A DNA stretch of 64,000 nucleotides from Alphaproteobacteria bacterium (GCA_017484225.1 JAFUTN010000022.1:2168-66167), one strand, 5' to 3'; shown: positions 9,327 to 58,800, counted from the first letter of the stretch. The notes: generated from the letters alone by a model not told the origin. Numbers and translations: made by a program.

Positions 9327-10577
9327 ATGGCTGATTTTGTTATAGATAGACCGCAATATATCCAAGAGCTAATGAGTTTTAAGGATACCGATTTAATTAA
9401 AATTGTAACAGGTGTGAGACGTTCGGGCAAGTCAACTGTTTTTGATTTATACGTCCAAGAGCTTTTAAAACAAGGTGTCTCCAAAGAACAGATTCAAATA
9501 ATCAAACTGGAAGAGGTGGAAAATGAGCATCTGCTGGATTATCATAAGTTGCACAAACAGGTGATGGATAATATTGTTGCTGGCAAAAAAAATTATGTCT
9601 TTTTAGATGAAATTCAGAAAGTTACTGATTTTCAAAAAGCTGTCCGCAGTTTATATGAAAAGAAAAACATAGATTTATACTTGACCGGTTCAAACTCAAA
9701 ACTTCAATCCGGGCAGTGGGCAACTTCTATCGCCGGAAGATATGTTGAAATAAAAATGTATCCGCTGTCATTCAAAGAGTTTTATGAAATCTACAAAGAT
9801 AAAGAAAACGATAACAAAGACAAAATATATGATAATTACTTGTTATACAGCTCTTTTCCGTATGCTCAGCACTTTGTAAATATCGGCGCACCTAATTTTC
9901 AGCAACAGATAGATACATATATTCAAGGGATTTATGACACTATCGTTTTAAATGATGTTATGGACAACAAAAATATCAGTGCGGCAGACCGATTACGTCG
10001 TGTTCTAAAGTTTGTCGCTAATTGTATCGGTTCCGAAATTTCCATAAAGAAAATCAGCGACACAATGACTTCGGATGGTATAAAAATATTGCCGTCAACA
10101 ATAGAAACATATCTTGATGCTTTTAAAGACGCTTTTGTGTTATATAAAGCTGACCGATATGATGTTAAGGGCAAAAAAATCTTGAAAACCTTAAACAAAT
10201 ATTATCTTGTAGATATGGGTATAAGACGACATTTGCTTGGCAATAAAGTAACAGATACAGGGCATATCTTAGAAAACATTGTATATCTGGAGTTATTACG
10301 CCGTGGATGTAATGTTTATGTCGGCAAAATAGATTATCGGAATAAAGATGGCAAATTACAAACAGCAGAAGTGGATTTTGTTGCCGAAACACCGAACGGA
10401 TTGGAATATTATCAAGTCAGCGATACAATGAACGAGCCGCAAACACTTAAACGTGAATTGGCTTCGCTGCAGATGATTAAGGATAATTACCCGAAGTTTG
10501 TACTCTCCAGAGATTACGGCACAAAAGACTATGAGGGAATTACGCAATTAAACGTTTTGGAATGGCTTGTTAAATAA
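9327..10577 (+). CDS. AAA_14 family ATPase with C-terminal DUF4143 domain
   Basis: Walker A GVRRSGKS, Walker B FLDEIQ, LTGSNS, KYYLVDMGIR, ENIVYLEL and EVDFV motifs. Confidence 0.9.
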   Translation: MADFVIDRPQYIQELMSFKDTDLIKIVTGVRRSGKSTVFDLYVQELLKQGVSKEQIQIIKLEEVENEHLLDYHKLHKQVMDNIVAGKKNYVFLDEIQKVTDFQKAVRSLYEKKNIDLYLTGSNSKLQSGQWATSIAGRYVEIKMYPLSFKEFYEIYKDKENDNKDKIYDNYLLYSSFPYAQHFVNIGAPNFQQQIDTYIQGIYDTIVLNDVMDNKNISAADRLRRVLKFVANCIGSEISIKKISDTMTSDGIKILPSTIETYLDAFKDAFVLYKADRYDVKGKKILKTLNKYYLVDMGIRRHLLGNKVTDTGHILENIVYLELLRRGCNVYVGKIDYRNKDGKLQTAEVDFVAETPNGLEYYQVSDTMNEPQTLKRELASLQMIKDNYPKFVLSRDYGTKDYEGITQLNVLEWLVK

Positions 10578-10784
10578 AATTCCAAAATCTTGAATTTGCC
10601 ATTGACTTTTGCTGATTTCAATTCAATGATTTACATAGTTTTTGCTACGACTCTTTTTATGTTGCGTAAGGCAAAAAGAATCAAACTTTTTAAAATTATA
10701 ACATGCTGAAATTGCGTTATATTTTTTAGAGTTTTAAAGAGTTGGCTGGTTTGACGTTTTCTCGTCGCTCCCGCCAATAACACA

Positions 10785-10819
10785 AAAAGCTTGATTCCCG
10801 TTTGGGAATCAAGCTCTTT
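10785..10819. terminator. bidirectional intrinsic terminator at the right island junction
   Basis: aaaaagcttgattccc-gttt-gggaatcaagctcttt. Confidence 0.75.
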
Positions 10820-10820
10820 G

Positions 10821-11672
10821 TCAGGCAGCCAGCATCTCTGCTTTCACCTTCTCGGCAACCTTAGATTGGAAGATACCGAAAAACTTAAGGCACTTGCGAA
10901 TCTTCTTGCCGAAGTAGTTCCTACCCTCAAGATCGTAATCCAGACCTTCTTCTCCATCACCCCAGTCAGTGAAGAGGGTTTTGAAGTCTATTTCGCCGGA
11001 ATACTTCTTGAAGAACTCTTTGTGGTTGCGCCAAGTCGGCAACAACCACTGAGCAACCTGCTGAACGCCGAAGGAGCGCACAGCAACTTCCTCAATAAAT
11101 TCATATACCTCCTTCAGACTCTCCTTCACAAGAGCTTCGTTCCAGAGGTAGCCGTTCAGCTCCTCGCCGGAGCAAGAAATGTGCGTGAGCAAGCCGAAGC
11201 AAATCTTCTTGGCATGCTCAGCCCAGAGCTGGTTGTTCAGGCGGTTGATGCAGAAGTAGAGATTCATTTTCAAGAAATTCCACTCCTCTTGCCCCATCAG
11301 CCCCGGCTGGTCATAGCAGGCTGAATACTTGCGATATTCTTCTGGAAGGCTCTCCCAGAAGTTGTAAGGAGCAGCAACACCCTTACCTCCCTTGACAGCA
11401 TGCACAACGGCACCATTGGAGATGCGCTGCATGGCCAGTTCCAACAGGAGCTCGCCGCTCTCACGGTCTCGCTCAACACAAGTCTGACCAAAACGAGCCA
11501 TAAACTCCATGAATGTCGGACTGATTCGCCATCCACGGATATCCTGCCCGCCTCGGACAACAATGCGCGGGAGGATGTAGTTATTCACCAACTCCTTCTG
11601 TGAAGCACAGTTGACATCGTTTTCACTCACACGGCAGAGTTCCATAACTGCCTCTAAATAGTTTACCTTCAT
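10821..11672 (-). CDS. hypothetical protein with atypical (GC-richer) composition
   Basis: 283-aa ORF with RBS-like upstream context; no recognised motif. Confidence 0.65.
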   Translation of the reverse strand: MKVNYLEAVMELCRVSENDVNCASQKELVNNYILPRIVVRGGQDIRGWRISPTFMEFMARFGQTCVERDRESGELLLELAMQRISNGAVVHAVKGGKGVAAPYNFWESLPEEYRKYSACYDQPGLMGQEEWNFLKMNLYFCINRLNNQLWAEHAKKICFGLLTHISCSGEELNGYLWNEALVKESLKEVYEFIEEVAVRSFGVQQVAQWLLPTWRNHKEFFKKYSGEIDFKTLFTDWGDGEEGLDYDLEGRNYFGKKIRKCLKFFGIFQSKVAEKVKAEMLAA

Positions 11673-15036: not shown

Positions 15037-16150
15037 TTATGCTACCGTGTTCGTTTTCAGTTTTTGCGACAAAGCCGAGGCTAAAAACATATCTATATCA
15101 CCATCCAAAACAGCTTTGCAATCCGCAGTTTCCGCTTCTGTTCGCAAATCTTTCACCAAACGATACGGCTGTAAAACATACGAGCGGATTTGATATCCCC
15201 AACCGTTATCTCCCTGATTATCTCTTACTTCCTGCGCTAAATCGGCTTTTTTCTGCATTTCACGTTCATATAAACGTGCTTTCAGCATTTTCCAGCAATT
15301 ATCGCGGTTTTGAAATTGCGAACGCTGCGTTTGACTTGAAACAACTATTCCTGTCGGAATATGGGTAATACGCACGGCCGAATCTGTTTTATTGATATGC
15401 TGTCCGCCGGCACCGGAGGCACGATATGTATCAATACGGCAATCAGCTTCATTTATTACAATATCAATATTATCATCAACAACAGGATACACTCCGACGG
15501 AAGAAAAGCTGGTATGTCTGCGTGCCGCACTGTCAAAAGGAGATATACGAACCAAACGATGAACACCGCTTTCATTTTTCAACCACCCGTAAGCATTGTG
15601 ACCGCTGATTTTAATTGTGGCCGACTTCAAACCGGCAACATCTCCCTCGGTTTCTTCAATATATTCCACCTTGTAATTATGATTTTCTGCCCATCTGACA
15701 TACATTCTCAAAAGCATTTGCGCCCAATCCATAGCCTCGGTTCCGCCGCTTCCGGCATGCACTTCCAGATATGTATCGTTAGCATCAGCCTCACCGCTTA
15801 ACAGCGATTCCAACTCGGCATGTTTGGTATTTTGTTGCAACACATTCAAACTGTCTTGCAGTTCTTTTAACATAGCTTCGTCATTTTCACTCTCGGCAAA
15901 TTCCACCATTTCCGTATAATCTGCCAATGTTTTTTCATAATTTTCATATTGTTCAAGCTTTGCTTCCAGCGTGTTTTTTTCGCTCATCAGCTTTTGCGCT
16001 TTTTCCTGATTGTCCCACAAATTGGGATCTGCCGCTAAGGAATTCAGTTCCTCTCGGCGCATAACCGCATTATCGTAGTCAAAGAAACCTCCTCAGCAAT
16101 AACAAAGATTGCTTAATTTCTTCAATTTGATTAAAAAATTCTGCTCTCAT
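15037..16150 (-). CDS. prfB: peptide chain release factor 2 with programmed +1 frameshift, join(16082..16150,15037..16080)
   Basis: GGQ and SPF motifs. The upstream frame MRAEFFNQIEEIKQSLLLLRRFL ends at CTT TGA C, preceded by the SD-like AGGAGG. Confidence 0.97.
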
Positions 16151-18573
16151 CAGTATTCAGCTCCTATTTGCACACCGCCGTTATCTTGTTCCGGTCCGGC
16201 GATATTATCATCTTCATCACCGATAACCCGTTGGCGATTATTAAATTCAAAATCAGGTTTGAGCGCTTCAATAATAACCGTAGAATCACTCGGTGAAGAA
16301 GGTTTTCCCGTATTCGGATTCACTCTGACCAGTTTAATTCCCTCCGGAATACGAAAAGCCGTATCCGGAACATCTTTCAGCGCATCTTGCATAAAGTCAT
16401 AAAACACCGGAAGTGCGGCCTGCGCACCGGTTTCTACTCTGCCGAGGCTGCGCGGTTCATCAAAACCCAAATATACGCCGGCAACCAAATCCGGTGAAAA
16501 TCCGACAAACCACGCATCTTTTGTTTCATTAGTCGTTCCGGTCTTTCCCGCCAAATGACGATGCAATCCGTTTAATCTGGCTCCGGTTCCTCTGGTTGCC
16601 ACACCTTCCAAAATGGATGTCATTTGATATGCTGACAACGGATCAACTACTTGTTCGCGAATTGCCTTAAAATCAGGCGCTTCTTGATTGGTCCAACTGT
16701 CTGCAACACAAGTATCACAAGGAGTCTGTTCATGTTTATAAATAGTTTTTCCTTTACGGTCTTGAATACGTTCAATCAAATACGGCGGGACTTTTTTTCC
16801 TCCGTTAACAATAACACTATATGCTCCGACCATATCAATCAAGCGAGTATCGGCAGCACCCAACGAAGATGACAAATATGGCGGAAGATGATTGTTAACC
16901 CCTACTCTTTTAGCCATATCAACAATTTTTTCCATACCTATATCCTGTGCCAAACGCACGGTCATCAGGTTTTTAGACAGTTCAACACCGCGGCGCAAGG
17001 TCATTAACCCGTAAAACTTTTTGGAATAATTCACCGGTTTCCATTTCGGCATACCGACACCCTGATCAAGAACAAAAGGAGCATCCAAAATTAAATCTGT
17101 CGGAGAATATCCGAGTTCCAATGCGGTTAAATAAACAAAAGGCTTAAATGTTGAACCTGTTTGACGAAAAGCCTGAGTTGCCCGATTGAATTGCGATTTT
17201 GCAAACGAAAAACCACCGACAAGTGCCAAAACCTTACCTGTGTGCGGGTCCATTACCGCCATGGCTCCTTCCACATCAGGAACTTGACGGAGCAAATACT
17301 CGTTATCCGTTTTTTTATCTTTACTTACTGCTTTTTCAACATAAACAACATCACCTTTTTTCAAAACCTGTTCAACCGATTTCGGCTCCGGTCCCATATT
17401 TTTTCCGCGTTCGGACCACCTCGCCCATTTTAAGGACGAAAGTAAAATTTTGCCGTTATTTTCAGCTTCCGTTTCTATTTCCGCTTCATTTGGCAAAACT
17501 TTCAAAACTACGGCTTTTTCCCATTCCGGTTCAGCACCGGCAACAAGCTTTGTGTTTTTCAATTTTTCTTTATAATCTCCGGATAATTCTATATTTGCCG
17601 TTGCTCCGCGCCAACCATGCCGTGAATCGTAAGCCAGCAAACCTTTGCGAAATGCCTTTGTCGCCATTTCCTGAATTTTCGGATCTATGGTTGTGCGCAC
17701 GATTAATCCGCCTTGATACAAGGCTTCATCACCAAAGTTATGACTGATTGAGCGTCTGACCTCTTCGCTGTAATACTCCGTTCCTTTCAAAAAACCGCTT
17801 TTACGCTCAACAACTTTCAAAGGTTTTTCCTGAGCTTCTTTTGCTTCTTCGGCTGTAATATAACCGTCTTCGGCCATACGTGTCAAAACCCAGTTGCGGC
17901 GTGCAACGGCGGCCTCATATTTTGTTTTCGGATTATAATTGTTAGGTCCTTTCGGCAATGCCGCCAAGTATGCAACCTCCTCAATAGATAATTCATCAAG
18001 TGATTTATCAAAATAATTCATGGCGGCGGCAGCCACACCATAGGCTCTGTTTCCGAGATAAATTTCATTCAAATACAATTCCAAAACATGTTCTTTGGAA
18101 AAAGCTTTACTTATGCGACGAGCCAAAATAGCTTCCTTTATTTTTCTGGTATAGGACAATTCAGATGAAAGCAAAAAGTTTTTAGCCACCTGTTGCGTTA
18201 TGGTTGAAGCGCCGGCCGGACGCCTGCCGCTCCCGTAATTTTTCAGATTGCCTATTATCGCACGTATAATTCCCAAATAATCAACACCTTTATGATAATA
18301 AAAATGTTTATCTTCTGCGGCAATAAATGCTTTTTTAACCTTATCTGGAATCATTTCAACCGGCACAAAAAGACGTTTTTCGGCAGCATATTCCATCATC
18401 AGTTGTCCATCTCCGGCAAACAAACGAGTCGTAACCGGAGGTTCATAATCGGCTAACTGGCGATAATCCGGAATAGATACATTAATTTGTGCCAAACCAT
18501 AAGTAACGGCTATTGCCGCAACAACAATAAACAACAAGGCCGTGCTGACCAAAAATGATAAAAATCTAAGCAT
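16150..18573 (-). CDS. mrcA: penicillin-binding protein 1A
   Basis: Transglycosylase motifs EDKHFYYH and GASTITQQVAKN; transpeptidase motifs STFK, SKN and KTGT. Confidence 0.95.
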   Translation of the reverse strand: MLRFLSFLVSTALLFIVVAAIAVTYGLAQINVSIPDYRQLADYEPPVTTRLFAGDGQLMMEYAAEKRLFVPVEMIPDKVKKAFIAAEDKHFYYHKGVDYLGIIRAIIGNLKNYGSGRRPAGASTITQQVAKNFLLSSELSYTRKIKEAILARRISKAFSKEHVLELYLNEIYLGNRAYGVAAAAMNYFDKSLDELSIEEVAYLAALPKGPNNYNPKTKYEAAVARRNWVLTRMAEDGYITAEEAKEAQEKPLKVVERKSGFLKGTEYYSEEVRRSISHNFGDEALYQGGLIVRTTIDPKIQEMATKAFRKGLLAYDSRHGWRGATANIELSGDYKEKLKNTKLVAGAEPEWEKAVVLKVLPNEAEIETEAENNGKILLSSLKWARWSERGKNMGPEPKSVEQVLKKGDVVYVEKAVSKDKKTDNEYLLRQVPDVEGAMAVMDPHTGKVLALVGGFSFAKSQFNRATQAFRQTGSTFKPFVYLTALELGYSPTDLILDAPFVLDQGVGMPKWKPVNYSKKFYGLMTLRRGVELSKNLMTVRLAQDIGMEKIVDMAKRVGVNNHLPPYLSSSLGAADTRLIDMVGAYSVIVNGGKKVPPYLIERIQDRKGKTIYKHEQTPCDTCVADSWTNQEAPDFKAIREQVVDPLSAYQMTSILEGVATRGTGARLNGLHRHLAGKTGTTNETKDAWFVGFSPDLVAGVYLGFDEPRSLGRVETGAQAALPVFYDFMQDALKDVPDTAFRIPEGIKLVRVNPNTGKPSSPSDSTVIIEALKPDFEFNNRQRVIGDEDDNIAGPEQDNGGVQIGAEY

Positions 18574-37926: not shown

Positions 37927-38412
37927 TTAACGCTTTGAGAATTGGTAAGAACGACGAGCTTTTGCTTTACCGTATTTCTTACGTTCAACAACACGGTCAT
38001 CACGTGTCAAGAAACCGGCCTGTTTCAAAACAGTGCGCAATTCCGGTTCATATTCGTTCAAAGCCTTAGAAATACCATGTTTAATGGCACCGGCCTGTCC
38101 GGATAAACCACCGCCTTTTACCGTGCAAACAACATCAAATTCGTTTTCACGATTTGTAACAACAAACGGTTGGTTAATAACCATCTTCAAAACCGGACGA
38201 GCAAAATATTCATCCAAACTTTTTTCATTAACGGTAATATTTCCTTTACCCGGTTTAATCCAAACGCGGGCAACGGCATCTTTTCTTTTACCGGTAGCAT
38301 AAGAGCGACCCATTTTGTCTTTAACAGACTTGCGAGGTGCTTTAACTTCAGATGTTTCTGCAGAAACGGAAGCAGACTTCAACTCTTGCAATGATTCAAT
38401 TTTTTTAGCCAT
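37927..38412 (-). CDS. rpsI: 30S ribosomal protein S9
   Basis: [21 protein letters not shown] and ERKKYG motifs. Confidence 0.99.
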
Positions 38413-53733: not shown

Positions 53734-54231
53734 TTATTTCTTTCGGACTAATTTGCAGTAAACTTGTGACAACAATTCAGCATCAAGCAAAGCTCCATGA
53801 ACATCTCTTTTGTTGGTATTAATGCCAAACCTTTCACATAACGCATCCAAATTACACCGCATGTTAGGAAACGCAGCTTTTGCCAGTTTCAGGGTATCTG
53901 TCATTTTATTTGTCAATTCAAAACCTAACTCGTGATTTAAGAAACTTAAATCAAAGGATATGTTATGTGCAATTAATTCTTTACCATCAATAAACTTTAG
54001 AAAATCATCCTTTATTTCATCAAAAGTCGGAAAATCTTTTAAGTAGTCCGTCGTTAAACCATGTATTTGCACAACCTCATCAGGTACAATTTGTTCCGGA
54101 TTGATATAAGTATGAAAGACGGCTCCGGTCGGTTGATTATTTTCATCAATTTCAATAGCGCCTATTTCAACCAATTTACAATTTTTAGGATCAAATCCCG
54201 TGGTTTCGGTATCAAAAATGACTTTATTCAT
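53734..54231 (-). CDS. DnaQ-like DEDDh 3'-5' exonuclease, catalytic domain only, intact motifs
   Basis: ExoI FDTETTG, ExoII HNISFD, ExoIII HGALLD; 165 aa with no epsilon C-terminal tail. Confidence 0.92.
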   Translation of the reverse strand: MNKVIFDTETTGFDPKNCKLVEIGAIEIDENNQPTGAVFHTYINPEQIVPDEVVQIHGLTTDYLKDFPTFDEIKDDFLKFIDGKELIAHNISFDLSFLNHELGFELTNKMTDTLKLAKAAFPNMRCNLDALCERFGINTNKRDVHGALLDAELLSQVYCKLVRKK

Positions 54232-54271
54232 ATATGCCTCCTATTAAATTATATTAATTATAAAAGACATA

Positions 54272-54290
54272 TCCGACAGATTCGGTCGCA
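54272..54290 (-). promoter_or_regulatory. 19-bp operator-like box A
   Basis: TGCGACCGAATCTGTCGGA, followed 9 nt later by TATAAT; 40 nt from the exonuclease ATG. Confidence 0.7.
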
Positions 54291-54311
54291 ATAAAACAAT
54301 ATACACAGAAA

Positions 54312-54503
54312 TTATTTCAAAGCATCCACGACTTTAATAAGTGTTGAAATTTGGTCATCTGATAATTTTTTAATACTGGAAATCAGTGCAGTTGCTTCAA
54401 CTAAAATATTACAACGCTCTGCTAAAACTTCCTGCGTTATCTTTGCTTTTTGACGTATAGCTTTTATTTTTAACCCGATTTTATGCTTCATGTTTCGCTC
54501 CAT
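54312..54503 (-). pseudogene. internally deleted XRE-family HTH remnant
   Basis: IGLKIKAIRQKAKITQEVLAERCNI start, but the recognition-helix region is missing. Confidence 0.55.
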
Positions 54504-54590
54504 TTATAGAAGTTAAACTTAAAGCTTTAGCTTGAAAATGAAGCAAAACTTTTATAATACTATTGTAAATACAAGTTTCACTTAATAAGA

Positions 54591-54609
54591 TGCGACCGAA
54601 TATGTCGCA
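54591..54609 (+). promoter_or_regulatory. 19-bp palindromic operator-like box B
   Basis: TGCGAC-CGAATAT-GTCGCA, extendable to GATGCGAC-N7-GTCGCATC; 46 nt from the nuclease ATG. Confidence 0.75.
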
Positions 54610-54655
54610 TCAGCATGTTAAATAGAAGTTAATATTCAATTTTAGGAGAAAATTT

Positions 54656-55561
54656 ATGACCAGAGCTTTAGATGAAAAATTTTTCAAACAATTTATAAAA
54701 GACGGCGAATATTATAATATTACATGCCTTATTAGAGATGATAGCAATTTAATGATGTGTTTACGTGGCAGTTACGTTACAATTTATTACAAAAGCCTGC
54801 AAATTTTAAGAATTAACAAAAACGGAACATTTGAAGTTGATAAAAATTATGGTATCAATCCAAATGACTATAAAGGTAATTGGGGTTTATATTTTAAGGA
54901 TGCAAAAAAAGCCATAGATAGCCACAGTCAAATTGAAAAGTTAGAAAAAGAAGTTCAACAAGCATTAGTTAAAGAAAACAATTGCAACTCTATTTGTAAC
55001 GAAACAGATTATTTTATTTTAGACATTGAATACACTCAAAGTGAATTTGATGGACGTTTTGATGCATTAGCGGTTTATTGGCCCAAAAACAAACGAAAAA
55101 ATGGCTCAAACCTCCGTTTAGCATTTGTTGAAGTAAAAGCTGGAGGAAAAGCCATTTCTGGAACAGCAGGCGTATCTGCACACTACGAATCTGTTATCAA
55201 ATTTATGGGTAATCTGAAAAAAGATAATAATAAAGAAATTTTTTTCAAAGATTTGGAAGATGTTATAGATCAACAACGTCAACTCGGTTTATGGAAATAT
55301 GAAAACCCACACAAAATAACTTTTTCGCGCACAGAAAAACCACAACTCATCTTTGTCTTGGTTAATTATAATCCGAATTCTAAACTCATAAATGATGAAA
55401 TTAAAAACATTGGTGAGCTTGTTGAAAAATATAAAAATGAGATACCTTTTGAAACTCTTTTTGCAACATCATCGTTTATGGGATATGGCTTATATGACAG
55501 CTGTATGATGTCCTTAGAATATGTACAAAAAAGATTATGCAGAGGCAATCATGAAGGCTAG
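54656..55561 (+). CDS. predicted PD-(D/E)XK nuclease
   Basis: ILDIEY...GRFDALAV...LAFVEVK pattern. Confidence 0.7.
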   Translation: MTRALDEKFFKQFIKDGEYYNITCLIRDDSNLMMCLRGSYVTIYYKSLQILRINKNGTFEVDKNYGINPNDYKGNWGLYFKDAKKAIDSHSQIEKLEKEVQQALVKENNCNSICNETDYFILDIEYTQSEFDGRFDALAVYWPKNKRKNGSNLRLAFVEVKAGGKAISGTAGVSAHYESVIKFMGNLKKDNNKEIFFKDLEDVIDQQRQLGLWKYENPHKITFSRTEKPQLIFVLVNYNPNSKLINDEIKNIGELVEKYKNEIPFETLFATSSFMGYGLYDSCMMSLEYVQKRLCRGNHEG

Positions 55562-56747
55562 TATTAAAAGAGGGGCAAATCAAATCGGCGGATCGACCGT
55601 GGAATTAACCGCCAACTCCGGTGAGCGTTTGATTATTGATTTAGGACTACCTCTGGATGCCGAAGAAAACACCGCAGATTTATTACCCGATATTAAGGGA
55701 CTAAAAAATAAAACCGATGATTTGCTGGGGATTCTTATTTCTCACCCTCATCAAGACCACTATGGCTTGGGTTTGCACATTGATAACAGCATCCCGATTT
55801 ATATGAGCAAAGCAACGGCCGATATTATGGATGTATGCGTTAAGCACAATCTTCCCAATGCCTTTGCTTTCGGTAATATACATATTTTTGATGATAAATC
55901 TTCTTTTTCCATCGGTCCGTTTACCGTAACACCATATCCGGTTGACCATTCCGCATACGGAGCATACGCCTTTTTGATAGAGGCCGACGGTAAACGCTTG
56001 TTTTACAGCGGGGACTTTCGTGCCCATGGGCGCAAGGGCAAATTATTTGACGGTTTTATCAAAAATCATCCCAAAGATATTGATGTTTTGATGATGGAGG
56101 GATCTTGCCTTGGTCGTGAACAGTCAACAAAATATCCGTCTGAAACATCTCTTGAAACAGAATTTGAAAAGGTCTTTAAGGAAACCAAAGGTGTAGCCTT
56201 TATTCAAAGTTCCTCACAAAATATTGACCGTATCGTTACCATTTACAGGGCAGCAAAGAAAAGCGGCAGGACCTTAGTCATAAGCGGTTATACAGGGCAC
56301 GTCTTAATGGTGCTAAATAACGAGCATTTACCGAGTTTCAAATGGCCGGACGTTAAAAAGTTTGCAACGGACACTACGGCACCGCATCATATAACCAAAG
56401 AGGTAATAGAACAAAATCCGTCTAAATATGTGATTGTGTTCGGCGGAATGATTTTCAATATCTTAAAAAGCAGTTCGCTTGTTAACGAAAATGCTTCCTT
56501 TATCTATTCTATGTGGGACGGCTACAAAGAGCTGTATCAAGAACGCTTAGATTTAATGAAAGAAAAAAATGTGCCGATGTATAATATTCATACTTCCGGC
56601 CACGCGGATATCCCGACATTGCAAAAATTTGCTTTGGCCATAAATCCTAAAAAAATTGTACCGATACATACTTTCTTTCCCGAGCAATTTAAGGAACTGT
56701 TCAACAACGTAGAATTGCATAATGATAACGAAACTTTTGAAATTTAG
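55551..56747 (+). CDS. MBL-fold beta-CASP ribonuclease (RNase J-like)
   Basis: QIGG, HPHQDH, VDHS, SGDFR, MMEG, HTSGHAD and VPIHT motifs; ATG 55551 overlaps the upstream stop by 11 nt. Confidence 0.9.
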   Translation: MKASIKRGANQIGGSTVELTANSGERLIIDLGLPLDAEENTADLLPDIKGLKNKTDDLLGILISHPHQDHYGLGLHIDNSIPIYMSKATADIMDVCVKHNLPNAFAFGNIHIFDDKSSFSIGPFTVTPYPVDHSAYGAYAFLIEADGKRLFYSGDFRAHGRKGKLFDGFIKNHPKDIDVLMMEGSCLGREQSTKYPSETSLETEFEKVFKETKGVAFIQSSSQNIDRIVTIYRAAKKSGRTLVISGYTGHVLMVLNNEHLPSFKWPDVKKFATDTTAPHHITKEVIEQNPSKYVIVFGGMIFNILKSSSLVNENASFIYSMWDGYKELYQERLDLMKEKNVPMYNIHTSGHADIPTLQKFALAINPKKIVPIHTFFPEQFKELFNNVELHNDNETFEI

Positions 56748-56755
56748 GATGTAAT

Positions 56756-57745
56756 ATGCCAGTAAATCATTCCGCCAGACTTGAAAAAGTAGAAAATATA
56801 ATCAGGCTTATCAATCGTATGGCAGGTTCTACCGAAGGTGTAAGCATTAATGACATTATGGTAGAATATAAAGTCTGTCGCCGTACTGCCGAAAGAATGA
56901 TGAATATTATCAGGGCGCTTTATCCAGCACAACTGGAAGAAGTCGATAACGGAGAAAACTATAAATCATATCGTTTGCAAGAGCTTTATCGCCAGGGACC
57001 GATAAAATTAGCGCCTGAAGAAATTTCCTGTCTATCTCAAGCAATAAAATTAGCTCATCGGGGAAAAAGAGAGGAATTAGCTGATGAATTACAGCACCTA
57101 GAATACCGCATAAAATCATTTTGCAAGGAAAAAGACAAGTATAACGTTGAAAATATAGCGGAAATGGAAGATATAAGCATGTCTGCCGGTCCAAAATATA
57201 TAATCAATCAAGAAATTTTAGCAGACCTTCGCAATGCCATCACAAATTGAAATGAAGTAATTATAACCTATAAACTGCGCGCAAATGGCGAAACTAAGCA
57301 CTTTCGGATACAACCTTATGGTATTTTATATGGCTCCAGACCTTATTTAGTAGCTTATTATGAGACAGATAAAGATTACCGTTATTTTTGTCTTTCTAAT
57401 ATTATTGCCATAGAGCTAACCGATATCAAATTCAGCCGCAATGAAAAATTTTCTCTGCAAAAATATGCAGAGCAGTCTTTCGGCAGTTTTCAGGAAAAAC
57501 CTTACAATGTTATTTGGAAAGTCAACAAAAACCGAGCAGATGATGCGGAACATTATTTATTTCATCCGACTCAAACTATAGAAAAGCAAAAAGACGGCAG
57601 TTTAATTGTTCGTTTCACCGCCGGTGGCTTAAAAGAAATGTGCTGGCATCTCTTTACTTGGGAGGGAGATATTGAGATACTGGAGCCGCAAGTATTAAAG
57701 GAAATGATGTGCGATTTGCTAAACAAAGCAAAAAATATGCTATAA
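56756..57745 (+). pseudogene. HTH-WYL-WCX transcriptional regulator interrupted by one in-frame TGA (57248-57250)
   Basis: The same frame continues after the TGA as NEVIITYK...QPYGILYGSRPYLVAY...FHPTQ...GGLKEMCWHLFTWEG to TAA 57745 (330 codons including stops). Confidence 0.9.
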
Positions 57746-58231
57746 TGAATTTAGTTTAGCGTAAAGTTGCACACACATGTCACACTCTTCTTCCTTAAAA
57801 TTGAAAAAATCAGAATCTTTTAATTTAAACACATGCATCAGATGAGTAACATAATTTTCTCTTAAATTTGCTTTTTTATTTACCCAACTCTTCAAATCAA
57901 TAAAATGATTAGACAGCGGTTGTTCCAACTCTCGTTCCAATACTGCTTGGGTAGATAGCGCATCATAACAAACAATTTCTTTATTGCCGATAAAAGCTAA
58001 AAAATCTTCCTTTATTTCGGATATCGTTCTTGATTCATTGATTTCATCTGCCGTGAGTCCATAAAATAATTCTATAGAATCAGGCAATTCCGCTTGCGGA
58101 TTAATAGGCGTATAAAATCGTTTGCCGGTTAAGTGTCCTGGTTCATTAAATTCCGCCGCATGGAGAGATAAAATCTTACCTTGAGTAATATTTTTACCGG
58201 TTGTTTTAATAACTAATGCAATTTCACTCAT
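57740..58231 (-). CDS. DnaQ-like exonuclease-fold protein, catalytic residues lost
   Basis: Aligns with 53734-54231 (TTG...INP...GLT...FL.FI...E.V), but ExoI DTE reads VIK and there is no ExoIII H..D. Confidence 0.75.
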   Translation of the reverse strand: MSEIALVIKTTGKNITQGKILSLHAAEFNEPGHLTGKRFYTPINPQAELPDSIELFYGLTADEINESRTISEIKEDFLAFIGNKEIVCYDALSTQAVLERELEQPLSNHFIDLKSWVNKKANLRENYVTHLMHVFKLKDSDFFNFKEEECDMCVQLYAKLNSL

Positions 58232-58233
58232 GG

Positions 58234-58737
58234 TTATTTCTCCTTTATTGTTAATTCTTTATACATTTTTGCCATCATATGACATCTTGAAAGAGGTCTT
58301 AGGTGCCACATTGTATCAATACCTTTGATATCAAACCTATTTAACAAATCAAAAAATGAAGGAGCTTTAACGTTTGGATTTTTATTTGCCAGCTCAGAAA
58401 TAATCGTTGTTTCATTAGGTAAAGCAAATCCTAACGCCATATATATAAAATTAAGGCTTTGTGCTTCATCAAAAACAACGAGTTCTTTATTCTCTAAAAA
58501 GCAAAGGAAGTTGTTTTCTAATTTGGAGAAAGTCGGCTTATCTTTAACAGTGGCCTGCGTAATACCGGTAATTGTTGAAATTTGTCGCGGTATACGACAT
58601 TGAGGATTAATCAACGAGCAAAACACATTTCCGGTAAGACGGCAATATTCATCTATTTCAATGGCCGAAAGTGATATGATTTTATCTTTTTCAAAATTTT
58701 TCCCTGTTGTTTCAATGTCTATAACAATCTTTCGCAT
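58234..58737 (-). CDS. DnaQ-like exonuclease-fold protein, partly degenerate
   Basis: ExoI IDIETTG retained; HN..FD and H.A..D replaced. Confidence 0.8.
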   Translation of the reverse strand: MRKIVIDIETTGKNFEKDKIISLSAIEIDEYCRLTGNVFCSLINPQCRIPRQISTITGITQATVKDKPTFSKLENNFLCFLENKELVVFDEAQSLNFIYMALGFALPNETTIISELANKNPNVKAPSFFDLLNRFDIKGIDTMWHLRPLSRCHMMAKMYKELTIKEK

Positions 58738-58781
58738 AACTTCTCCTTTTTTGATATATATATCTGGCTATAAAGCAGTGC

Positions 58782-58800
58782 AATGACTGTTTTGGTCGCT
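58782..58800 (-). promoter_or_regulatory. degenerate 19-bp operator-like box C
   Basis: AGCGACCAAAACAGTCATT, followed 9 nt later by TATAGC; 44 nt from the ATG. Confidence 0.5.

Follow-up and report, generated by a model that had tools for sequence, protein, structure and literature searches.

We report here that three 19-bp boxes in a stretch of alphaproteobacterial DNA (GCA_017484225.1, JAFUTN010000022.1:2168-66167; all 64,000 nucleotides of it are referred to below as the window) are probably operators of the DriD class of WYL activators, read by a WYL protein encoded in one of the operons they precede; judging from sequence comparison, we put the probability of this reading at roughly 80%. 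The boxes head three transcription units: the exonuclease gene exoA; an operon encoding a PD-(D/E)xK-like protein of 301 amino acids, a nuclease of the metallo-beta-lactamase (MBL) fold and beta-CASP type, and the WYL regulator itself; and the exonuclease gene pair exoC-exoD. In an earlier note on this DNA, the box was taken for the site at which the local WYL protein binds and for the element tying the three units together. The first proposal gains support from the homology of the protein to DriD, the identity of the recognition helices, the match to the DriD operator, and the finding that box and WYL gene go together among relatives; the second is supported as well, with the caveat that the box upstream of exoC-exoD (box C) is weak. 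Since the mechanism has been described before, the finding is less novel than the note assumed. The boxes are as follows.

54272-54290, minus strand: box A, TGCGACCGAATCTGTCGGA, candidate DriD-type operator upstream of exoA
54591-54609, plus strand: box B, TGCGACCGAATATGTCGCA, candidate DriD-type operator upstream of the PD-(D/E)xK / MBL / WYL operon
58782-58800, minus strand: box C, AGCGACCAAAACAGTCATT, probable weak DriD-type site upstream of exoC-exoD

On re-reading the sequence, the coordinates, identities, and start-codon distances given in the earlier note all proved correct: box A agrees with box B at 17 of 19 positions and box C at 11 of 19, and the boxes end 40 (A), 46 (B), and 44 (C) nucleotides upstream of the ATG codons of exoA (54231), the 301-residue protein gene (54656), and exoC (58737). 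The arms of box B form a perfect 6-bp inverted repeat. GCGAC-N7-GTC matches the window 5 times at 4 sites where 0.5 matches are expected, a count reached by none of 100 shuffles, and three of the four sites are boxes A, B, and C; the fourth, at 38305, lies inside rpsI (ribosomal protein S9), matches in one half-site only, looks like chance, and was rejected as a further operator. A weight matrix trained solely on sites outside the window (those of orthologous loci together with Caulobacter DriD sites), with 20 shuffles as the null, gave box B a score of 28.7 and box A one of 26.0, whereas no shuffle exceeded 17.9; in 64 kb, boxes A and B alone score above the shuffles. The alphaproteobacterial LexA site is a GTTC-N7-GTTC direct repeat; no such LexA/SOS-type site was seen on inspection of the three control regions, where the boxes are CGAC/GTCG inverted repeats instead.

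DriD of Caulobacter crescentus is a homodimeric activator built of a winged helix-turn-helix (wHTH), a three-helix bundle (3HB), a WYL domain, and a WCX domain; it senses single-stranded DNA (ssDNA), and its targets include didA, bapE, recJ, dnaG, recA, and CCNA_03891/01149 (PMC9186387, PMC10853764, PMC13004042). Its consensus operator is ATACGAC(N7)GTCGTAT, and a natural operator used in binding assays is ATACGACCGTTTCTGTCGCA (PMC13004042, PMC9186387). Boxes A and B both carry the full, experimentally defined DriD core CGAC-N7-GTCG; each agrees with the natural DriD site TACGACCGTTTCTGTCGCA in 15 of 19 positions, some of them within the spacer.

The candidate reader of the boxes is encoded by the third gene of the operon behind box B.

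56756-57745, plus strand: gene of 329 codons for a DriD-like WYL regulator (wHTH-3HB-WYL-WCX), interrupted by an in-frame TGA

Residues 6-325 of the WYL protein align along the full length of Caulobacter DriD (PDB 8tp8 and 9pfq, E ~1e-45), and a PDB sequence search at E 10 matched DriD entries only among solved structures, with no match to PafBC, BrxR, or CapW. Pfam places the WYL domain at 153-220 and WCX at 263-324, in a single chain with the same wHTH - three-helix bundle - WYL - WCX order as DriD; the regulator is the product of a single gene in which WYL and WCX each occur once, and not a PafBC-type heterodimer or tandem two-WYL protein. In the alignment the recognition helix RRTAERM (R42-R43-T44-A45-E46-R47-M48) is identical to R36-M42 of DriD, and the base-reading DriD residues Arg37, Glu40, and Arg41 are all conserved; the crystal structure of DriD on DNA shows two guanines per half-site read by Arg37 and Arg41 and a cytosine contacted by Glu40 (PMC10853764). 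The wing lysine (DriD Lys62) is likewise conserved, and DriD Thr61 is replaced by tyrosine. When the ssDNA-contact residues named for DriD (PMC9186387) are mapped onto our alignment, Tyr168, Tyr192, and Arg204 are identical, and Arg178 to Lys and Trp206 to Phe are conservative changes; the remaining two are not conserved (see below).

The geometry of the three promoters appears to be that of DriD-dependent promoters.

54257-54262, minus strand: exoA promoter, -10 hexamer TATAAT, 9 nucleotides after box A
54619-54624, plus strand: operon promoter, -10 hexamer TAAATA, 9 nucleotides after box B, preceded by TGT (extended -10-like)
58767-58772, minus strand: exoC-exoD promoter, -10 hexamer TATAGC, 9 nucleotides after box C

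A box followed by 9 nucleotides and a hexamer is found at 13 of 13 window and orthologue sites, the hexamer starting with TA at 12 and reading TTTATT at the other (L009). A simple sigma-70 scan found no -35/-10 pair at any of the three boxes; this and the constant spacing support the suggestion of the earlier note that the boxes occupy the -35 region. DriD-regulated promoters have no recognizable -35 element according to a 2026 cryo-electron microscopy study, the DriD site lying in its place, at one fixed distance from the -10 (PMC13004042), and in our own alignment of three printed Caulobacter DriD promoters each site appears to be followed by 9 nucleotides and CAA, the same spacing as here. 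The starts predicted from these promoters are ~54250 (minus strand), ~54631 (plus strand), and ~58760 (minus strand). The RNA runs yield short, directionless contigs only, and the metatranscriptome contigs show just that the genes of relatives are transcribed. One contig (X25, 58546-58761, whose RNA label is a guess) ends at 58761, one base from the predicted exoC start at ~58760; this is a single contig of low depth and too weak to count as start-site support.

For comparison across relatives, 166 loci (L numbers) were fetched by homology to the 301-residue protein or to the WYL protein. The motif search at orthologous loci that the earlier note had suggested finds the box upstream of orthologous operons that have the WYL gene: the close relatives with such a box are L001, L002/L003, L009, L081, and L162/L163, and all of them have a WYL gene after the MBL gene. 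Loci L004-L008 and L010 have neither box nor WYL gene, and L004-L007 still keep a divergent XRE-family helix-turn-helix (HTH) gene and the GAAGYWWWACTT repeats that accompany it (both described below); because these loci retain XRE gene and repeats without box and WYL gene, we assign the box to the WYL protein and not to the XRE protein. In an alignment of six loci (56-98% protein identity), the 7-nucleotide spacer varies, whereas neither the half-sites nor the TA of the hexamer change at all, as one would expect of an operator bound by a protein. Boxes A and C also have orthologous counterparts with the same N9 spacing: box A is identical in L001 and L081 and reads TGCGACCGAATGTGTCGCA at the same place in L003, and the L003 counterpart of box C is TATGACCGAGTATGGCGCA, at the same position and equally far from the same TATAGC, with a GGCGCA half-site that is also present in the Caulobacter didA and bapE sites. 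L162 contains a third DriD-type box, which precedes an RNase_T - RNase_T - MBL operon by 46 nucleotides and is 6.5 kb distant from the WYL gene. Further afield, an operon of L035 (32-34% protein identity) with a WYL gene and a homologue of the 301-residue protein is headed by a perfect TACGAC-N7-GTCGTA, after which come N9 and TAACCT, and L015 has a perfect box upstream of the MBL gene and a 301-residue homologue with no local WYL gene. Boxes with the strict core are mostly absent upstream of distant operon homologues (30-45% identity), implying either that the wiring is lineage-specific or that the operator has diverged. A metagenome scan with the 301-residue family gave mostly distant environmental loci, L081 being the sole new close relative.

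Several observations on these loci extend the range of arrangements in which such parts occur. The additional L162 operon (8700-11335, minus strand), which comprises a second MBL/beta-CASP gene and two RNase_T genes, is headed by TATGACCAAAATTGTCGTA and stands beside a phage-type integrase, an arrangement that points to modular, mobile use of the same parts. In L009 (6942-7458) and L162 (590-1088), the slot downstream of the XRE gene holds, instead of exoA, a gene for a helical, weakly TPR-like protein of 158-164 amino acids, with a DriD-like box (AGCGACC.ATTTTGTCTTA) ~25 nucleotides before its ATG that would give a nearly leaderless mRNA. DriD homologues of ~41% identity (L165 at 1183; L166 at 2803 and 5160) are found in operons with AddAB-like PDDEXK_1 and UvrD helicase-nucleases, where the box takes the variant form TACGTC-N7-GACGTA, then N9 and TA; the DriD homologue of L164 precedes a GmrSD type IV restriction gene. 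Finally, L012, L013, and L016 have AATGTCCAAA(T/A)CTGAC(G/A)(C/G)A, followed after 9 nucleotides by TA(T/A)(A/G)(G/T)T, ~100 nucleotides upstream of the 301-residue homologue of the same nuclease pair; by sequence, this motif is possibly a diverged DriD-type box. L013 and L016, labelled Melainabacteria or Gastranaerophilales (L012 is an unclassified uncultured bacterium), have a WYL gene with an SRRTAERM helix ~3 kb away from the nuclease pair.

The intergenic region that holds box B is shared with the divergently transcribed XRE gene.

54312-54503, minus strand: remnant of an XRE-family HTH protein, 63 amino acids, with a 141-bp in-frame deletion relative to orthologues of 105-110 amino acids
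54509-54583, no strand assigned: repeats GAAGTTAAACTT (54509), GAAGCAAAACTT (54540), and CAAGTTTCACTT (54572), candidate XRE operators in the divergent control region

The three repeats, of GAAG(T/C)nnnACTT type, are the only exact GAAGYWWWACTT matches in the window; they are conserved in all loci that have the XRE gene, including those without WYL gene or box, and the third is invariant in the six-locus alignment. Judged by this distribution, the repeats are probable operators of the XRE protein; a conserved TTGAAA-15-TATAAT (54532-54558) lies across them. The XRE protein is full length (105-110 amino acids) in L001, L003, L004, L009, L081, and contig X6. In the window, a deletion with its junction at 54393-54400 (8-bp overlap) has removed 47 codons, that is HTH helices 3 onward and most of the HTH domain, and only profile positions 1-21 of Pfam HTH_3 still match, as against the full domain in the L001 orthologue.

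The WYL gene, too, is damaged in this strain, by a single base change.

57248-57250, plus strand: nonsense codon TGA (TGG to TGA, W165 to stop), tryptophan in orthologues L001, L003, L009, and L081

A wider description of this DNA had placed a frameshift in the WYL gene; this is not so, and we reject it in favor of the single in-frame nonsense codon. Position 57250 is G in contigs X5, X6, and X28, from three other samples, and A in X1 and X4, from one study; the stop falls before the WYL and WCX domains (sensing and dimerization), and the truncation is carried at full depth in this strain. An alternative code in which TGA specifies tryptophan was also rejected, since TGA ends 8 of 40 open reading frames of at least 200 codons and a UGA frameshift site is present in prfB. 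That gene (release factor 2; ~15037-16160, minus strand) has the classical AGGAGG..CTTTGAC +1 frameshift site, and because prfB carries CTTTGAC we take TGA to be a true stop here. Because the WYL nonsense codon and the XRE deletion inactivate both regulators in this lineage, the boxes are probably orphaned; no second WYL gene was found in the 64-kb window, and the regulon is most likely non-inducible here unless the genome encodes a further DriD paralogue at some other place.

At an intact locus, the regulon would work as follows: i) ssDNA, arising from DNA damage or possibly from phage or plasmid replication, would bind the WYL domain; ii) this would free the winged-helix domains; iii) the dimer could then bind TGCGAC-N7-GTCGCA at the -35 position, 9 bp upstream of a -10 starting with TA; iv) the bound dimer would help sigma-70 RNA polymerase to open three otherwise weak promoters, so that exoA, the PD-(D/E)xK - beta-CASP - WYL operon, and exoC-exoD would be co-induced; v) since the regulator gene is part of the induced operon, positive feedback would be expected; and vi) the divergently transcribed XRE protein would probably act as a repressor through the GAAGYWWWACTT repeats in the same intergenic region. 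The sequence identities, the homology, the conserved geometry, and the joint occurrence of box and WYL gene are shown by the comparisons above; from DriD we infer that ssDNA is the trigger, that the protein activates and does not repress, and that it contacts RNA polymerase.

Several facts weigh against the reading of the boxes as DriD-type operators served by the local WYL protein. An intact, expressible regulator is not present at the locus, the WYL gene being truncated in this genome. The outer bases of the half-sites are TG/CA here and TA/TA in DriD. Two ssDNA-contact residues, Ser172 (Ala here) and Lys202 (Asp here), are not conserved in our mapping on the alignment, and because the DriD contact residues are only partly conserved the effector could differ from ssDNA. 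A conserved TATAAT lies upstream of box B at 54553-54558; if the operon also starts from it, box B would lie inside the leader, where a bound protein could hinder the transcript. Lastly, box C is not significant by sequence alone and is supported by its position and by conservation and synteny. It scores 5.4 on the weight matrix, rank 44 of ~128,000 positions in the window, and six window positions with TA at +9 score at least as well; it carries CGAC-N7-GTCA, one full half-site only, the second being GTCATT. That only boxes A and B function, with box C a chance resemblance and the exoC-exoD promoter independent, is therefore a possibility to be reckoned with, though not the likelier one: box C has the same 9-nucleotide spacing to the -10-like TATAGC and lies similarly far (44 nucleotides) from the start codon, a different DriD-like sequence occupies that very position before the same TATAGC in L003, the box in L162 precedes DnaQ-like exonuclease genes, and the validated Caulobacter didA and bapE sites are about as degenerate.

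The same WYL protein might instead be a repressor of the BrxR/CapW kind, occluding the promoters until released by a ligand. The locus does look like a defense or conflict island (nucleases, a BRO-N/PDC-S13 neighbor, and a nucleotidyltransferase-restriction endonuclease (NTase-REase) fusion), the boxes overlap the promoters, box B also lies downstream of the conserved TATAAT at 54553, and other DriD homologues sit beside GmrSD. But there is no -35 hexamer to cover at any of the three promoters, the distance from box to -10 equals that in DriD-activated promoters solved with RNA polymerase, the solved relatives found by sequence are DriD entries alone, and the loss of a nuclease repressor would be expected to harm the cell, yet the truncation here is at full depth; we regard repression as improbable. 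Binding of the boxes by the XRE protein would fit the position of its gene between boxes A and B, divergent from the operon, but is very hard to reconcile with L004-L007, on which we reject it, or with the match of the box to the operator of a different, structurally characterized family. Hardest to credit is that the boxes are chance palindromes, RNA hairpins, or terminators without a protein partner. The RNA of box B can form an 8-bp hairpin (z -3.07), and box A lies 22 nucleotides after the XRE stop codon; against this, the motif is strongly enriched in the window, folding of the box A and box C RNAs does not surpass that of shuffled sequences, the half-sites stay strictly the same, with no compensatory substitutions, across loci in which the spacer varies, and no terminator-like site is called at the boxes. 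The hairpin or terminator reading was rejected on the comparison with shuffles and the absence of a terminator call.

We therefore keep to DriD-type activation as the preferred reading, and turn to the genes that would be under its control.

53734-54231, minus strand: exoA, DnaQ/DEDDh 3'-5' exonuclease of 165 amino acids (Pfam RNase_T, 1.4e-36; NCBIfam Pol III epsilon, 194.9 bits)
54656-55561, plus strand: first operon gene, protein of 301 amino acids with a PD-(D/E)xK-like invariant D..ExY...ExK pattern
55521-56747, plus strand: MBL-fold, beta-CASP/RNase J-like nuclease of 408 amino acids (Pfam Lactamase_B_2 and RMMBL; NCBIfam RNase J family, 1.2e-21)
58234-58737, minus strand: exoC, DEDDh exonuclease paralogue of 167 amino acids (Pfam RNase_T, 1.2e-15)
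57740-58231, minus strand: exoD, degenerate DEDDh paralogue of 163 amino acids (Pfam RNase_T, 3e-05)

The gene exoD shares a transcription unit with exoC and follows it immediately, after a gap of 2 nucleotides. In the 301-residue protein, D123, E125, E159, and K161, residues typical of PD-(D/E)xK nucleases, are invariant in 23 homologues; Pfam, NCBIfam, and PADLOC all gave no match to it. The cluster has a BRO-N/PDC-S13 gene and the NTase-REase fusion as neighbors, and direct-repeat pairs at 51558-51737/59514-59693 (77%) and 52569-52741/60745-60917 (87%) flank the nuclease cluster together with the NTase-REase gene; the bracketed region looks like a cargo-exchange hotspot. Compared with L001 (7507-8894, corresponding to window positions 54312-55561), the 301-residue protein is 76% and the XRE protein 55% identical, whereas the exoA, MBL, WYL, exoD, and exoC flanks are 94-99% identical; this mosaic divergence suggests recombination or diversifying change in the first operon gene. 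The closest relatives are labelled as alphaproteobacterial metagenome-assembled genomes from horse feces and roe-deer rumen, and the runs in which this stretch occurs are gut metagenomes (sheep, pig, bovine, and others). A search of IMG/VR for a phage origin of the module gave 1 weak match only.

The two-gene nuclease core is found across many phyla (144 genome and 317 metagenome matches), wired to DriD-type boxes in Alphaproteobacteria and apparently to variant boxes in Melainabacteria, and has no system model in PADLOC, Pfam, or NCBIfam; nor did we find in the literature a described system combining WYL, MBL, and DnaQ specifically. It is tempting, though on present showing doubtful, to suppose that the WYL regulator and the PD-(D/E)xK-like, beta-CASP, and DnaQ-like proteins might form an undescribed ssDNA-triggered nuclease system for anti-phage or anti-plasmid defense or for DNA-end processing; if so, the loss of both regulators in one strain could record selection that silenced a self-toxic effector.

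We wish to stress that the points of interest here are the set of targets, their control by a WYL and an XRE protein together, and the fact that a natural strain has lost both regulators, and not the mechanism itself, which is not new. If our reading of the sequences is right, the DriD switch of Caulobacter extends to uncultured gut Alphaproteobacteria with its operator almost unchanged; the operator would allow DriD-type regulons to be predicted from sequence only, and the regulon here is a concrete, testable one that links a widespread but uncharacterized pair of nucleases to signalling by DNA damage or ssDNA. A strain with both regulators inactivated, alongside near-identical intact strains, is a ready-made genetic comparison.

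Among known systems, BrxR (BREX) and CapW (CBASS) resemble the present case in having a WYL regulator beside conflict-type genes and an inverted repeat in the promoter; they differ in being repressors, and gave no detectable PDB sequence match, and the promoters here are of the activator type. The mycobacterial RecA-NDp promoter motif is TGTCGGTA-N8-TAnnnT, and the promoter-proximal half of box A with its hexamer, TGTCGGAT-N8-TATAAT, looks much like it. As in sigma adaptation by mycobacterial PafBC (PMC6789036), the site of a WYL activator would stand in for the -35, a short and fixed distance before the -10. PafBC, however, is a heterodimer or a two-WYL fusion, its site is not a 6-N7-6 palindrome, and no PafBC structure matched at E 10. 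DdaA of Acinetobacter and SiwR of Mycobacterium smegmatis resemble the present case in that a single WYL regulator activates DNA-damage-response genes, some of them adjacent (PMC13010146, PMC10693628). Closest is DriD itself: the regulators are homologous over their full length and have identical recognition helices, the operators share the core CGAC-N7-GTCG, the site takes the -35 position in promoters that lack a -35 and, in our alignment, keeps the 9-nucleotide spacing to the -10, the targets include nucleases and exonucleases, and the host is again an alphaproteobacterium. The two differ in that i) the regulator here is encoded within its own target operon, implying positive feedback, whereas Caulobacter driD is not self-activated; ii) the targets here form a compact local cluster of PD-(D/E)xK-like and beta-CASP proteins with three DnaQ-like paralogues; iii) a second, XRE-family regulator shares the control region; iv) the outer operator bases are TG/CA; and v) in this strain the regulator is a pseudogene.

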